Assembly: GCA_963734015.1 (NCBI GenBank)
Contig: CAVTFG010000011.1
Coordinates: forward strand, 17,842-81,841
DNA: 64,000 bases
Direction: 5' to 3'
Source: an uncultured bacterium
GTDB lineage: Bacteria > Actinomycetota > Thermoleophilia > Solirubrobacterales > 70-9
In this document: positions 13,033 through 63,818 of the stretch, piece by piece
Numbering within the stretch: position 1 is the first letter of the stretch
Layout of the letters: each line of letters opens with the position of its first letter
The notes under the pieces: generated by a model
What the model was told of the DNA's origin: nothing
The model's input: only the letters and a program-made list of their open reading frames with translations
The model's database searches: none
Translations under genes and position numbers: made by a program

Positions 13033-13092
13033 ATGGGTGAGCGACGTAAGGCGCGAAAGAAACACTGCCTCCCTGGCAAGGGATTGAGTTAG
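13033..13092 (+). CDS. Conserved 19-codon small ORF, copy A (MGERRKARKKHCLPGKGLS), ending 2 nt before the ccr GTG
   Basis: Nucleotide and peptide similarity to 45464-45523 and to 22157-22225 (reverse strand). Starts with ATG; TAG at 13090-13092. No clear SD. Confidence 0.45.
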   Translation: MGERRKARKKHCLPGKGLS

Positions 13093-21327: not shown

Positions 21328-21675
21328 ATGGCCGCCCGACGCATCATGCCCTACCACGAGTCGCCGGACTTCGAGGCCACGCGCAGCTTCTACACGCGGG
21401 TGCTCGGGCTCGAGGAGGGGAACTTCGGCGGCGGTTACATCGGCTTCGGATCCGGCCAGGCGCAGGTCGTCTTCGCCCCGCCAGGCGTGGAGCCCGTGCT
21501 GCCCGACATGGGCGTGGACGTCGGTTCGCGGGGAGCCGTCGATGCGGCGCATGCTGAGGCGGTCCAAGCCGGGCACGAGGTCATCTACGGTCCGGTTGAC
21601 GAGCCGTGGGGTGTCCGCCGCTTCTTCGTTCGCGATCCGCACGGTGTCGTGATCAGCGTGCTGGCCCACGAATAG
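21328..21675 (+). CDS. VOC-family (glyoxalase/bleomycin-resistance fold) protein
   Basis: 115 aa with FYTRVLGL...EPWGVRRFFVRDPHGVVISV, typical of a single VOC domain. Confidence 0.8.
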   Translation: MAARRIMPYHESPDFEATRSFYTRVLGLEEGNFGGGYIGFGSGQAQVVFAPPGVEPVLPDMGVDVGSRGAVDAAHAEAVQAGHEVIYGPVDEPWGVRRFFVRDPHGVVISVLAHE

Positions 21676-21783
21676 TCGAAGCTCGGCGTGATCAGCCGTG
21701 CGAGTCCGCAGCCGCGAGGCTCGGCAGGTCGACCACGAGCCGCGACAGCCGCTCGCCCCTCAGGTCGACGGCCTCGCGGATGC

Positions 21784-22167
21784 TTCTTCGCCACCTTCCC
21801 GCAGCTCGAGGGGATCCGCTTCAGCCACCGGTGGGGCGGCGCGATCGACACCTGCAGCCGGTTCTTCGCGTTCACCGGAACCTCGCACGGCGGGCGGGTC
21901 GCATACACGGTCGGCCATACCGGCCTGGGCGTCTGCGCGAGCCGGTTCGGCGCCGGCCTGGCCCTCGACGTCCTCCACGGAACGGCGAGCGAGGCCGCCG
22001 GACTGCACAGCATGAGAAGCAGGCCCATGCCCTTCCCGCCCGAGCCGCTTCGCTGGGCGGCGATCCAGCTGACCCGTAGCCGCCTCGCCGCAGCCGACCG
22101 CAAGCGGGGCGAGCGCGGTTGGTGGTTGCGCGCGCTCGACCGGGCCGGGCTGGGCTTCAACAGCTGA
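21784..22167 (+). pseudogene. C-terminal remnant (~125 aa) of an FAD-dependent oxidoreductase (DAO/PuuB-like)
   Basis: FPQLEGIRFSHRWGGAIDTCSRFFAFTGTSHGGRVAYTVGHTGLGV...PFPPEPLRWAAIQLT...LDRAGLGFNS matches the C-terminal third of ~460-aa enzymes. The FAD-binding N-terminus is absent, and upstream in-frame sequence is Arg-rich junk. Confidence 0.7.
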
Positions 22168-22225
22168 GAAACACTGCCTTACCGGGCGGGCGAACATGCT
22201 TTCGCGACTTGCGTCGCTCACTTGA
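22157..22225 (-). repeat. Third, inverted and start-less copy of the conserved small-ORF element (..SSERRKSRKHVRPPGKAVFLSC*)
   Basis: About 85% nucleotide identity to copy B over ~48 nt (GTGAGCGACGCAAG.CGCGA.AGCATGTT.GCCC.CC.GG.AAG). The ATG GGT is replaced by TCA AGT. Confidence 0.6.
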
Positions 22226-22237
22226 TCTAATGTCGGC

Positions 22238-23233
22238 ATGGCGATCGGGGCGTTCATCGGCACCGGGCGCAACCTCGAGCGCGCGCTCGACCGGGTCCGG
22301 CGCGCGGAGGAGCTGGGCTACGAATCGGCCTACGTCACGCACATCGCCGCGCGCGACTCGCTCACGGTCCTCACCCGCTACGCGTCCGTTACCGAGCGCA
22401 TCCGGCTCGGCACGGGCGTCCTCCCCATCTTTTCGCGCACGCCCGCGTCGGCGGCTCAGACCGCCGCCACCATCGACGAGATCTCGAACGGGCGGATGGT
22501 TCTGGGGATCGGCGTGTCGCACCGGGTCACGGTCGAGCATTGGTTCGACGCCGAGATCACGAAGCCGGTCACTCAGATGCGCGAATACGCCGGGATCGTC
22601 CGGGCGATCCTGAACGGCGAGGAACCCCCTGCCGGAGAGTTCTTCAACTCCAGGTTCGCGTTCATGGGCTATCCGCCCCGTCCGGAGCTGCCGATCTATA
22701 TCGCCGCCCTGTCCCCGAACATGCTGCGCCTGGCCGGCGAGATCGCGGACGGCGTGATGCTCTGGCTCTGCAACCCCCAGTACATCCGCGAGACGGTGAT
22801 CCCCGAGGTCAGGAGCGGCCGTGAGCGGGCCGGCAAGACGCTCGAGGGGTTCGACGTCGTCGCCGCGGTCCCGGTCGGCGTCACGGACGACCCCGACGCA
22901 GCACGCGCCGCGTTCCGCGAGGACCTGATCCCGTACGCGTCGCTGCCGTTCTATCGCGCGATGCTCGAGCGCTCCGGCTTTGGCGCCGACCTCGCGGCTT
23001 TCGACGAGGGGATGGCCGGGGGAGACCCCGACCAGGCGATGGCGGGCCTCTCCGACGAGCTGCTCGCCTCGCTCGCGGGGCTCGGCGACGGCGACGCCGC
23101 CCGCGCCAAGGTCGTCGAGTACCAGGAGGCGGGCACGACCTCGCCCTGCATCGGCGGCATCCCGAGCGCCGGCTTCGATGCGGCGCTCGAGGCTGTGGCC
23201 GAGATCACAGAAGGATCTCCGGCACAGGCGTAG
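22238..23233 (+). CDS. LLM-class (luciferase-like) flavin/F420-dependent oxidoreductase
   Basis: TIM-barrel LLM pattern (ELGYESAYVTH..., GRMVLGIGVSH, PIYIAALSPNMLRLAGEIADG). Confidence 0.85.
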   Translation: MAIGAFIGTGRNLERALDRVRRAEELGYESAYVTHIAARDSLTVLTRYASVTERIRLGTGVLPIFSRTPASAAQTAATIDEISNGRMVLGIGVSHRVTVEHWFDAEITKPVTQMREYAGIVRAILNGEEPPAGEFFNSRFAFMGYPPRPELPIYIAALSPNMLRLAGEIADGVMLWLCNPQYIRETVIPEVRSGRERAGKTLEGFDVVAAVPVGVTDDPDAARAAFREDLIPYASLPFYRAMLERSGFGADLAAFDEGMAGGDPDQAMAGLSDELLASLAGLGDGDAARAKVVEYQEAGTTSPCIGGIPSAGFDAALEAVAEITEGSPAQA

Positions 23234-45002: not shown

Positions 45003-45464
45003 GTGACCGCCGCCACCCGCAGCACCGCCCCGGCCGACCTCGAGGCTTTCCGCGAGGCGTGGGACGAGTTCTTCGGGGCGGTTCGCCGAGCGCGCGGCCG
45101 CGCGGCGCGTGAGAGCGCCCCGGGCTCCCTGACCCTGGCGCAGTTCCAGCTTCTGGCGGCGTTCGCCGACGCGCGCGAGCTGAGCGTCGGCGAGCTTGCG
45201 CTGGCCGGCGGCGTCGCGCCCCCCACCGCGACCCGCATGCTCACCGGACTCGAACGCGACGGGATCGTCGAGCGCCGGCCGTCCGAGGTGGACCGGCGGA
45301 GCGTGCGCGTCCGCCTGACGCCGAACGGCCGTCGCGTGTTGCGCGCGAAGCGCAAGCTGGTGGCCGCCAAGCAGCGGGCGATCTTCGAGACCCTGACCAC
45401 CACCGAGCGACGCCAGTCCGAGTCGATCCTCCGCCGCCTGGCCGTGGCGATGGAGGAGTTGTGA
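45003..45464 (+). CDS. MarR-family transcriptional regulator
   Basis: wHTH region LTLAQFQLLAAFADARELSVGELALAGGVAPPTATRMLTGLERDGIVERRPSEVDRRSVRVRLT. Confidence 0.9.
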   Translation: MTAATRSTAPADLEAFREAWDEFFGAVRRARGRAARESAPGSLTLAQFQLLAAFADARELSVGELALAGGVAPPTATRMLTGLERDGIVERRPSEVDRRSVRVRLTPNGRRVLRAKRKLVAAKQRAIFETLTTTERRQSESILRRLAVAMEEL

Positions 45465-45523
45465 TGGGTGAGCGACGCAAGGCGCGACAGCATGTTTGCC
45501 CCCCTGGCAAGAAATGTCCATGA
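45464..45523 (+). CDS. Conserved 19-codon small ORF, copy B (MGERRKARQHVCPPGKKCP), overlapping both neighbours
   Basis: Its ATG shares one base with the marR TGA (TGATG), and its TGA overlaps the MFS ATG (ATGA). SD GGAGGAG lies 5 nt upstream. Paralogous to 13033-13092. Confidence 0.55.
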   Translation: MGERRKARQHVCPPGKKCP

Positions 45524-46992
45524 ATCCACACCTGAACCCCGGTCGTCAGCACTACGGCCTGACCCTCGCCGTCCTGCTGATCGCCGCCCTCGCCTTCGCC
45601 CTGCAACAGACGATGGTCGCCCCCGCCCTGCCGGCGATCCAGGAGGAGCTGGATACCTCCACCACGGCGGTGACCTTCGTACTCACCGGTTTCCTTTTGA
45701 CCGCCTCGGTCTCCACTCCCATCATGGGCCGTCTCGGCGACATGTTCGGCAAGGAGCGGATGCTCGTGATCGCGCTCCTGATCTTCGGACTGGGCTCGCT
45801 GGTCTGCGCGCTCTCGCACTCGATCGAGGTCCTGATCGCGGGCCGCGGGATCCAGGGCATTGCCGCGGCGGTGTTCCCCCTGGCCTTCGGGATCATCCGC
45901 GACGAGTTCCCGCCCGAGCGCGTGGCGACGGGCATCGGCCTGATCAGCGCCACGTTCGGCATCGGCGGCGGCGCCGGCCTCGTCCTGAGCGGGTTGATCG
46001 TCGACCACCTGGCCTACGAGTGGATCTTCTGGCTCGGTCTGGTGTTCATCGCCGTCGCGATCGTGGCCACGTTCCTCTGGGTGCCGGAGTCGCCCGTGAA
46101 GAGTCCGGCCAAGATCGACTGGGGCGGCGCCGCTCTGCTGTCGGGAACGCTGGTCTCGCTCCTGGTCGGCGTCAGCGAGGCGAACTCGTGGGGCTGGGGC
46201 TCGCCCGAGATCCTGGGGCTGTTCGCCACCTCGGCGATTCTCTTCATGACGTGGGTCAGGTACGAGCGGCACCAACCCGAGCCGTTGGTGGACATCGCGA
46301 TGATGCGCGAGCGCGCCGTGCTGACCACAAACCTGACGGCGTTGATGGTTGGCTTCGGGATGTTCGGGTCGTTCATCCTGATCCCACAGCTCGTGCAGCT
46401 GCCCGAGTCCACCGGCTTCGGCTTCGGCGCCACGGTGACGCAGGCAGGCCTGTTCATGGCTCCCTCGGCGGCGATCATGCTCGTCGCGGGGCCGCTGGCG
46501 GGCTGGCTGGGCAGCCGTTTCGGCTCCCGCCTCCCGCTGCTGATCGGCACCGCGCTGACCGCGGTCAGCTTCGCGATCCTCGCCCTGGCCCACGAGGACC
46601 GCGCTTGGATCTATGTCTCGAGCGGCATCCTCGGCCTCGGCATCGGCTTCGCGTTCGCGTCGATGGCCAACCTCGTCGTGGAGGCGGTCCACCCGAGCCG
46701 CACCGGCGTCGCCACCGGGATCAACACGATCATGCGCACGATCGGCGGCTCGCTCGGCGGCCAGATCGCGGCGACGATCGTGGCTTCCACCGTGCTCGCC
46801 TCAACCGGCCTGCCGGAGGAGTCCGGGTTCGAGCTCGCGTTCGCGCTGTCGGGCGTGGGGATGGTCGGCGCGTTCGTGGCCGCGCTGGCGATCCCGCGGG
46901 ATCTGCCCTACTCCCCCACGCGCGTGGCGCGGGAGACGGTCGCGGCGACCACGCCCCTGGCCGGCCCCAGCGCCTCTGGCGGGAGCCAGTGA
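45520..46992 (+). CDS. MFS transporter, DHA2 (14-TMS, EmrB/QacA-like) drug:H+ antiporter family
   Basis: 14 hydrophobic segments, motif A-like GRLGDMFGKERM and motif C-like region. The track ORF begins at 45496; ATG 45520 is preferred because of the small-ORF coupling. Confidence 0.88.
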   Translation: MNPHLNPGRQHYGLTLAVLLIAALAFALQQTMVAPALPAIQEELDTSTTAVTFVLTGFLLTASVSTPIMGRLGDMFGKERMLVIALLIFGLGSLVCALSHSIEVLIAGRGIQGIAAAVFPLAFGIIRDEFPPERVATGIGLISATFGIGGGAGLVLSGLIVDHLAYEWIFWLGLVFIAVAIVATFLWVPESPVKSPAKIDWGGAALLSGTLVSLLVGVSEANSWGWGSPEILGLFATSAILFMTWVRYERHQPEPLVDIAMMRERAVLTTNLTALMVGFGMFGSFILIPQLVQLPESTGFGFGATVTQAGLFMAPSAAIMLVAGPLAGWLGSRFGSRLPLLIGTALTAVSFAILALAHEDRAWIYVSSGILGLGIGFAFASMANLVVEAVHPSRTGVATGINTIMRTIGGSLGGQIAATIVASTVLASTGLPEESGFELAFALSGVGMVGAFVAALAIPRDLPYSPTRVARETVAATTPLAGPSASGGSQ

Positions 46993-62686: not shown

Positions 62687-63187
62687 CTAGCCGCAGACGG
62701 GCCAGTGCTGGCGGCCGTCGCGCTTCTTGAGCGCCACTGCGACCACGGCCTGGGTCTTCCAGTTGTAGTCGATCGGGTCGCCGCCGGGGGTCTTCGGCGA
62801 GTGACGCCAGGTCGAGCGCATGAACTGGAACGCGCCGCGATACATGCCGCCGCCGCCGATCGCGTTCGGATCGCCGCCCGACTCGCAGCGGCTCGTCCTG
62901 CGTGCCCAACGGCGGTTGCGGTCCGAGTAATCCTCCCAGATGCTCGCGTAGCGGCTCTTGCTCTTGGCGGCCTTGGAGCTGTCGCCACCACCGCCACCGC
63001 CACCGCCGGTGGCGCCGATTCCGCCGCCGCTTTCCGCGCCGGCGTCAGCGGTCGCCAGGCCGGCGAACATCGCCACGACGGCCATCACGACCGCCCAGAA
63101 CGCGAACCGGTCGGGCCGAGGGTTGGTGCGCTCGCGGCGCCTGTCAGTTTGGGTTGTCGCCCGTTCGGGCGTGAAAAGTTCTTCCAT
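62687..63187 (-). CDS. Rpf-like transglycosylase-domain protein (membrane-anchored, Gly-rich linker)
   Basis: TM anchor, poly-Gly linker, then CESGGDPNAIGGGGMYRGAFQFMRSTW (transglycosylase-like/Rpf core). Confidence 0.82.
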   Translation of the reverse strand: MEELFTPERATTQTDRRRERTNPRPDRFAFWAVVMAVVAMFAGLATADAGAESGGGIGATGGGGGGGGDSSKAAKSKSRYASIWEDYSDRNRRWARRTSRCESGGDPNAIGGGGMYRGAFQFMRSTWRHSPKTPGGDPIDYNWKTQAVVAVALKKRDGRQHWPVCG

Positions 63188-63194
63188 GGTTTCT

Positions 63195-63335
63195 GATCGC
63201 TTGCGGGGTTAGCTGTCGGGCTCGCGCCTGAAACTGGCGCTACGTGGCAGAGGCCATGCGATTCGCCCCGGGACCTCGGTCCGTTGGGTCCCCCGCTCCC
63301 CGCGATATGTAGGCGGGGATTCAGCGGAAGTCGGC
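63195..63335 (-). promoter_or_regulatory. c-di-AMP riboswitch (ydaO/yuaA class) in the rpf-like 5' leader
   Basis: The minus strand reads ...GCUGAAUCC...AGCGGGGGACCCA...GGGGCGAAUC...GCCCGACAGCUAACCCCGCAAGCG. This reproduces the conserved ydaO blocks, including the terminal CAGCUAACC.CG.AAGCG. Confidence 0.88.
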
Positions 63336-63370
63336 GGCAGATTAGCAGAAGATCAGACGATGGTTTGCAC

Positions 63371-63477: not shown

Positions 63478-63818
<341 letters not shown>

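Follow-up and report, generated by a model that had tools for sequence, protein, structure and literature searches.

The repeat at the marR-MFS junction

The window, meaning the whole stretch of 64,000 nucleotides of DNA analyzed here, comes from an uncultured Solirubrobacterales bacterium and has a G+C content of 69.8 %. Within it, a region at 45003-46992 carries a marR-family regulator gene (45003-45464, + strand; Pfam MarR, 1.4e-13) followed by a gene for an MFS transporter of the EmrB/QacA type (45520-46992, +; Pfam MFS_1, 3.2e-59), as a preliminary description of this DNA had also proposed. The closest homologues of the transporter belong to bacteria named Solirubrobacterales or Thermoleophilaceae, and homologues are named EmrB/QacA. 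Between the marR stop and the MFS start lies one copy of a short repeat, referred to here as copy 2 (45465-45519, +), a sequence that is missing from six orthologous loci and is matched by the family HMM at 45466-45514 (E = 5e-14). A mini-ORF of 19 codons (45464-45523, +; MGERRKARQHVCPPGKKCP) bridges the two genes. Its ATG (45464-45466) has one A in common with the marR stop TGA (45462-45464), giving TGATG, and its own stop TGA (45521-45523) overlaps the MFS ATG (45520-45522), giving ATGA. The sequence GGAGGAG is found at 45452-45458, 5 nt upstream of the mini-ORF. Direct reading of the sequence bears out this arrangement, which had been reported in the preliminary description together with the suggestion that the ORF encodes a conserved peptide.

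Copy 2 is unusual for its family. Its mini-ORF runs in frame 2 relative to the family, in which frame 0 is the usual one, and the family-frame start in copy 2 (GTG 45468) opens 524 codons without a useful stop. At this locus, it is the frame chosen in the preliminary description that happens to supply the bridge between marR and the pump. The 3' end is also atypical, with AAGAAATGTCC in place of AAGG(G/C)AGGTnTTCTG, so copy 2 lacks the usual internal Shine-Dalgarno-like sequence. Since the MFS gene lacks a Shine-Dalgarno sequence of its own, translation of the transporter presumably depends on coupling to the mini-ORF. At the RNA level, copy 2 has a hairpin 1 (45472-45485, +; GCGAC-GCAA-GGCGC) with an A.G mismatch at the fourth pair, and a hairpin 2 region (45495-45511, +; TTTGCC-CCCCT-GGCAAG). 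The alternative short stem, NCC/GGN', is disrupted here by an A following AAG.

The other copies in the window

A 20-nt core, GTGAGCGACGYAAGKCGCGA, occurs without mismatch at three sites, 13037-13056 (+), 45468-45487 (+), and 22202-22221 (-). Shuffled sequence gave a mean of 0.13 matches, and three matches were reached in 0 of 100 shuffles. Run at maximum sensitivity over the whole window, the family HMM also finds three copies only, so the number first described stands. Copy 1 (13033-13092, +; HMM match 13034-13086, E = 6.6e-14) is located in a divergent intergenic region before a crotonyl-CoA-reductase-like zinc-dehydrogenase gene, which Pfam classifies as a zinc-type dehydrogenase. It has a family-frame mini-ORF of 16 codons, from GTG 13037 to TGA 13087; the frame first described runs from ATG 13033 to TAG 13092. 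Copy 3 (22167-22227, -; HMM E = 5.1e-17) is antisense to both of its neighbors, an ORF on the + strand ending at 22167 and a luciferase-like monooxygenase gene (Pfam; +) starting at 22238. It has no bounded mini-ORF and belongs to a minority of about 15 % of copies that point against the neighboring gene.

Several features around these copies deserve mention in their own right. The ORF that ends right at copy 3 (21688-22167, +) has 159 codons and no Pfam hit; by eye it resembles the C-terminal part of a FAD-dependent oxidoreductase and may be a gene remnant. The 550 nt spanning 21675-22238 contain no clear gene. When promoter and terminator consensus sequences were sought near the three window copies, no promoter turned up, and the one terminator-like site, a weak one, was in copy 1 on its antisense strand. 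That site (13065-13079, -) consists of hairpin 2 in antisense followed by TGTTTCTTTC, and the consensus element is less T-rich than copy 1 at the terminator-like tail. Elsewhere, the window encodes a class A bacterial RNase P RNA (63480-63809, -; 194.6 bits); a c-di-AMP (ydaO/yuaA) riboswitch (63184-63336, -; 67.6 bits) lies on the same strand, about 150 nt farther downstream.

Anatomy and RNA structure of the element

The family consensus is RTG-AGCGAC-GYAA-GKCGC-GAAAS-(8 variable nt)-CC(N)(C/G)CC-TGGYAAG-G(G/C)AGGTnTTCTG-ATG. To briefly describe the canonical unit, it opens with RTG-A, hairpin 1 (GCGAC-GYAA-GKCGC), and a GAAAS sequence with a variable linker. The hairpin 2 region follows, either as TTKGCC-CNCCT-GGYAAG or, alternatively, as NCC-UGGYAA-GGN'. 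The unit closes with the Shine-Dalgarno-like G(G/C)AGGT, about 6 nt more, and a stop that overlaps the start of the next gene.

How do the copies vary? In 115 distinct copies, four pairs of hairpin 1 (GCGAC/GKCGC) are invariant and one is variable, being A-U in 50, C-G in 15, G-C in 3, G-U in 2, and unpaired (mostly A.G) in 45. Whole-stem swaps also occur, with GCACCC-GTA-GGGTGC in L010 and GGGGC-TT-GCCCC in L150, and loop 1 consists of 3 or 4 nt of any sequence. Two mutually exclusive stems are possible in the hairpin 2 region. The TTKGCC/GGYAAG stem is 89 % paired, and its pair 37-49 is GU in 52 copies, GC in 51, and AU in 8. The alternative is the short NCC/GGN' stem, extendable to a pairing of CCNCC with GGNAGG, in which pair 43-54 covaries (CG 81, GC 24, UA 2). 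Compensatory changes in both hairpins of the aligned copies indicate that variation follows base pairing, not codons, and this covariation backs the RNA hairpin that the preliminary description had raised as an alternative to a peptide. In thermodynamic folding, stability was no greater than that of shuffled sequence (z between -1.1 and +0.4), and RNAalifold recovered hairpin 1 alone. An H-type pseudoknot joining both versions of hairpin 2 was considered and rejected on geometry, by reasoning only, because no linker would cross stem 1.

The element has no match in Rfam. At gathering thresholds, the window and canonical copies were unmatched, and at E <= 10 only chance-level matches to snoRNAs, sRNAs, and tmRNA fragments appeared.

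The mini-ORF and its proposed coupling to flanking genes

Across the family, the reading frame is RTG AGC GAC GYA AGK CGC GAA ..., and its start, RTG AGC GAC, is present in 199 of the 211 collected copies (94 %). The codon at the 5' edge is ATG in 135 of them, GTG in 59, and TTG in 5. The modal length of the mini-ORF is 18 codons. Among 179 evaluable copies, the downstream gene is co-oriented in 136 (76 %) and opposite in 27, a 5:1 bias, and between two co-oriented genes there are 102 sense copies versus 17 antisense. About 15 % of copies are antisense or located at the 3' ends of genes.

At the 3' side, the mini-ORF stop overlaps or abuts the in-frame start codon of the gene in 97 of the 142 copies that have a co-oriented downstream gene and a start codon (68 %), a statistic that is in part inherited because the 3' tail ..TTCTGATG belongs to the repeat consensus. 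These junctions take the forms TGATG (43), GTGA (20), ATGA (9), TAATG (8), TTGA (5), and TAGTG (5), and the remaining 7 abut; about 30 % of co-oriented copies are not coupled. At the 5' side, 65 of 121 copies have the upstream gene's stop overlapping or adjoining the start of the mini-ORF (31 of the ATGA type, 19 of the TGATG type, and 15 abutting). The positional link of the repeat to start codons is a property of the family, and a short ORF overlapping the flanking genes at both ends, first noted at copy 2, is family-wide though not universal. Length variants differing by 1-2 nt kept the coupling frame in only 4 of 15 cases, and strict frame maintenance is therefore not claimed.

With the canonical anti-Shine-Dalgarno sequence assumed for this lineage, complementarity is -6.8 kcal/mol at both sites, the variable flank upstream of the mini-ORF start and the 3' end of the element, compared with -3.7 and -3.4 kcal/mol in control windows (p = 1e-16 and 1e-25). 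The Shine-Dalgarno-like sequence before the mini-ORF sits in the variable 5' flank, outside the repeat.

Family size, distribution, and apparent mobility

How widespread is the element? A scan of one genome per species with the pattern GAGCGACGNAAGNCGCGA-N12-18-CCNGGNAAG returned 76 loci, nearly all from Solirubrobacterales/Actinomycetota metagenome-assembled genomes (MAGs), with the exception of three Xanthomonadaceae loci. The load is up to about 25 matching stretches in one MAG, and 14 in a complete 2.5-Mb chromosome. A metagenome scan anchored on the linker and hairpin 2 only, with hairpin 1 left free, gave at least 120 loci. Through nhmmer and regular expressions, at least 211 non-redundant copies were collected (the metagenomic part being among the matches listed), nearly all from Solirubrobacterales/Actinomycetota MAGs and soil metagenomes, so the preliminary description's question of whether copies exist beyond the window has a positive answer. 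The repeat unit is about 55-60 nt long, intergenic, and present in tens of copies per genome.

The three Xanthomonadaceae hits were excluded from the family as long palindromes of another kind. These sequences, from Luteimonas and Pseudoxanthomonas (L020:1027-1069, L021:305-349, L028:4255-4299), have only the GAGCGACGKAAGTCGCGA core in common with the element. There, GAGCGACGKAAGTCGCGA forms one of the two arms of a long, perfect inverted repeat (GGGAGCGACGGAAGTCGCGAC ... GTCGCGACTTCCGTCGCTCCC); the sequences appear to represent a family of REP-like palindromes with no relation to the Solirubrobacterales element.

Most copies, including all three in the window, are single units. Tandem arrays of two or three units with a period of 53-57 nt occur at eight loci (L063, L085, L093, L113, L131, L139, L147, and L150), an example being L113:7604-7771. 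The periods observed are 53, 54, 56, or 57 nt; at 53 or 56 nt successive mini-ORFs overlap as ATGA, and at 54 or 57 nt they are fused in frame. At six other loci (L017, L034, L097, L158, L086, and L041), the downstream gene itself starts with RTGAGCGAC.., repeating 10-17 nt of the element's 5' junction, and in L034 the rare TTG stands on both sides of the copy. Such 3' junctions look like a partial second repeat unit now used as a start.

Is the element mobile? Six orthologous marR-MFS loci, with MFS identities of 96, 87, 85, 83, 83, and 79 %, lack it. In four of these empty sites the two genes overlap by 4 nt and in one they abut; that of the closest relative has a 13-nt spacer, TGA-CGGAGGGACGGAG-ATG. 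Because all six are empty, copy 2 reads as a lineage-specific insertion into a coupled, formerly overlapping junction, a comparison of filled and empty sites that covers this one site. No terminal inverted repeats were seen in the family consensus, and no associated transposase was found in the analysis of junctions and mobility. Direct repeats at the junctions measured 5.96 nt, barely above the 5.37 nt of a cross-locus control. Those of 10 nt or more were present in 5.5 % of copies and 1.3 % of the control, and the longest look like a partial second (tandem) copy; the test does not support a general target-site duplication. Given that none of these three hallmarks was found, the case for mobility rests on the one filled/empty comparison and on dispersal.

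Orthologous copies under constraint

Some positions are occupied in many species. The junction between etfB and etfA carries the element in 15 different genomes or contigs (L006, L025, L031, L038, L042, L057, L062, L066, L075, L092, L110, L114, L120, L123, and L126). Other junctions that recur across species are rpmJ-rpsM, rpsJ-rplC, L11-L1, and the positions before S4 and before S11, the genes at these orthologous junctions having been identified by eye from their encoded termini. In all 15 etf copies the mini-ORF stop is found at the etfA start, in five different forms (TGATG, TAGTG, TAAATG, TAAGTG, and TAGATG). Compared between genomes at 11 etf loci, the element shows 90.2 % identity; in etfA itself, the same 11 loci are 61 % identical at four-fold degenerate sites and 89.7 % identical at first and second codon positions.

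Could this similarity reflect homogenization among the many copies within each genome? In one MAG, the etf copy shares 90.6 % identity with etf copies elsewhere but only 78.1 % with 26 paralogues in its own genome. Because this copy is closer to its orthologues than to paralogues from the same MAG, the sequences point to vertical inheritance under constraint at the etf locus, not concerted evolution. As a separate observation, the etfB-etfA copies are almost always of the 'CCGCC...GGCAGGTGTTCT' subtype, even in genomes that mostly have the 'CCCCC...GGG' subtype.

Comparison with known repeats and leaders

Small intergenic repeats are familiar in bacteria, and the closest parallel is offered by the MIRUs of mycobacteria. 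A recent review presents MIRUs as mobile units that insert at start codons and whose ORF is coupled at -4 nt (PMC12548453, citing Supply et al. 1997). Going by that account, MIRUs and the present element share several features: both are short (40-100 bp) intergenic repeats in an actinobacterial genome; both often lie between the genes of an operon, oriented with them; in both, the start codon of a small ORF overlaps the stop of the preceding gene and its stop overlaps the start of the following one; and both appear to insert at start codons in such a way that downstream translation is preserved. The two are likened by description, not sequence, and differ in host, MIRUs being known from the M. 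tuberculosis complex and M. leprae and the element from uncultured Solirubrobacterales-like Thermoleophilia. MIRUs are sometimes repeated in tandem, and tandem units of the element occur at the eight loci named above, but it is mostly found as single units rather than as VNTR arrays. Also unlike MIRUs, it has two small covarying hairpins and an internal Shine-Dalgarno-like sequence, and it occupies orthologous positions in many species under strong purifying selection.

The same review (PMC12548453) ties the idea of MIRU insertion to bicistronic-design (BCD) leaders. Synthetic BCD leaders and natural coupled upstream ORFs (uORFs) resemble the element in having a first Shine-Dalgarno sequence (SD1), a short leader ORF, a second Shine-Dalgarno sequence (SD2) near the 3' end of that ORF, and a stop that shares bases with the start codon of the gene of interest (TGATG/TAATG/ATGA) (PMC12548453). 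Their logic is that the translating ribosome clears local structure and delivers itself to the downstream start (PMC12548453). Unlike BCD leaders, the element is natural, repeated, apparently mobile, and internally conserved, and its function is a predicted one. REP/BIME, ERIC, and Correia-type (MITE-like) sequences are likewise small dispersed intergenic repeats that form stem-loops in transcripts, can affect neighboring mRNAs, and often carry open reading frames (PMC2229807, PMC3184786). In contrast to these, the element has no terminal inverted repeats, target-site duplication, or long stem joining its 5' and 3' ends, and its placement has a strong polarity relative to the downstream start codon, whereas the others lie at 3' ends or as inverted pairs. 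It is also much shorter than MITEs. A MIRU-type repeat in the Solirubrobacterales lineage is apparently undescribed; a literature search gave no relevant paper.

Competing interpretations

What, then, is this element? We regard it as probably a MIRU-like, dispersed, mobile intercistronic repeat of Solirubrobacterales-type Actinomycetota, built like a natural "bicistronic design" cassette. The best-supported explanation for its placement is that it would be tolerated, and at some sites retained, before start codons because it brings a translatable, coupled mini-ORF. Ribosomes are predicted to translate the mini-ORF of about 18 codons, whether they initiate there independently or have just finished translating the upstream gene, and would melt the small hairpins of the element as they pass. 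They would then terminate at the downstream start codon and re-initiate there, so that an insertion would preserve (or provide) downstream translation. The peptide itself would be a by-product.

The preliminary description had favored a different reading, in which selection acts on a conserved micropeptide or leader peptide (..ERRKAR..H.C.PPGK) whose PPG motif might cause EF-P-dependent stalling that regulates the downstream gene. The coupled small ORF survives from that interpretation; the conserved, stalling peptide does not, and we consider it very improbable. Copies 1 and 2 do have an ATG in that frame, bounded by stops near the flanking genes, and several differences between window copies (CCC CCT GGC versus CCG CCC GGT; CGC/CGT) do fall at third positions. 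However, two of these seemingly synonymous sites are the Y positions of the GYAA and UGGYAA loops and the third is a C/G position covarying with the base it pairs with, and so they do not speak for selection on the peptide MGERRKARQHVCPPGK. A codon-periodic pattern of substitution did not emerge either; the positions that vary belong to loops or to covarying pairs and are non-synonymous in both frames (in the frame first described, for instance, CCS/CTC/CAC and TGC/GGC/GAC/CGC). That frame (GAG CGA CGY AAG ...) has no start codon in typical copies, the start being in a different frame in 94 % of the family, and copy 3 lacks a start codon and is antisense to its neighbors. Because loop 1 may have 3 or 4 nt, any frame is shifted and none is conserved. 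With no selection at the peptide level, the PPG motif is incidental; the peptide of the usually translatable family frame reads ..A(P/R)L(V/A)R.. and has no PPG. The A/T-ending codons noted in the preliminary description are due to nucleotide-level conservation of non-coding-type sequence in a 70 % G+C genome. Might the element instead be a purely selfish, REP/MITE-like DNA repeat without a role in expression? Its start codon, stop overlap, and SD-like sequences would then be the survivors of selection against harmful insertions or a carry-over from the founder copy. Dispersal, tandem duplication, the filled/empty polymorphism, the 15 % of antisense copies, the frame mostly not being restored in indel variants, and the partial second copies after some copies all fit such a repeat. 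They have to be set against the 5:1 orientation bias, the 90 % identity at the etf locus versus 61 % at neutral sites over deep divergence and without concerted evolution, the stop kept at the etfA start through five different forms, and a Shine-Dalgarno-like sequence that lies outside the repeat. This reading, too, is less likely than the MIRU-like one, and on balance it is doubtful.

Coupling alone is insufficient to explain about 90 % identity over 44 nt, and the conservation of hairpins and linker beyond what coupling needs keeps a regulatory-RNA or trans-factor reading alive. Candidate readers of the sequence and its hairpins would be a mobilizing enzyme, an RNA-binding factor, or an RNase. 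In one form of this idea, the element is a cis-regulatory RNA module that controls the translation or processing of many genes at once, the mini-ORF being secondary. Either the hairpins and the GAAAS linker would be an operator for a trans-acting protein, RNase, or small RNA, or the two hairpin 2 conformations would form a switch, one of them pairing CCNCC with the GGNAGG Shine-Dalgarno sequence. In favor of such a module are the covariation, seen in both hairpins and in each of the two exclusive forms of hairpin 2; the strong purifying selection that covers all 44 nt at one orthologous locus; the presence of copies at orthologous places within ribosomal-protein operons; and the position of the Shine-Dalgarno-like sequence in the 3' arm of the alternative hairpin. 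Yet the downstream genes are functionally heterogeneous (efflux pump, dehydrogenase, etfA, ribosomal proteins), the stems are only 3-6 bp long and no more stable than shuffles, with hairpin 1 alone given by RNAalifold, and no Rfam family matches. Polymorphic insertion among close relatives, tandem arrays, and antisense copies are traits expected of repeats, not of riboswitch-like regulators, and much of the covariation may reflect a few events inherited by subfamilies; we judge this form unlikely. A further reading, also rather unlikely, is that the element is more than a tolerated insertion and has been domesticated as a lineage-wide translation-control module, a hairpin pair plus mini-ORF placed before dozens of genes, including ribosomal-protein and etf genes. 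It would be read by a dedicated trans-acting factor (an RNA-binding protein or RNase) or would act by toggling hairpin 2 conformations that hide or expose the Shine-Dalgarno sequence.

Implications

If the MIRU-like interpretation is right, the MIRU solution, a small repeat made tolerable within operons by a coupled mini-ORF of its own, is not a mycobacterial oddity but arose or persisted in a distant, uncultured actinobacterial order. Copies of the element would represent a natural version of the architecture (SD, leader ORF, SD, overlapping stop/start) that synthetic biologists designed independently. For annotation, the mini-ORFs of the repeat should not be called conserved peptide genes, and start-codon calls can be misled by the family where a partial repeat forms the beginning of a downstream gene. 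At orthologous sites, the internal hairpins are conserved unusually strongly, a hint that something reads the sequence. Should the control-module reading prove true, an uncultured actinobacterial order would have built a global post-transcriptional regulon from a mobile "bicistronic design" cassette.
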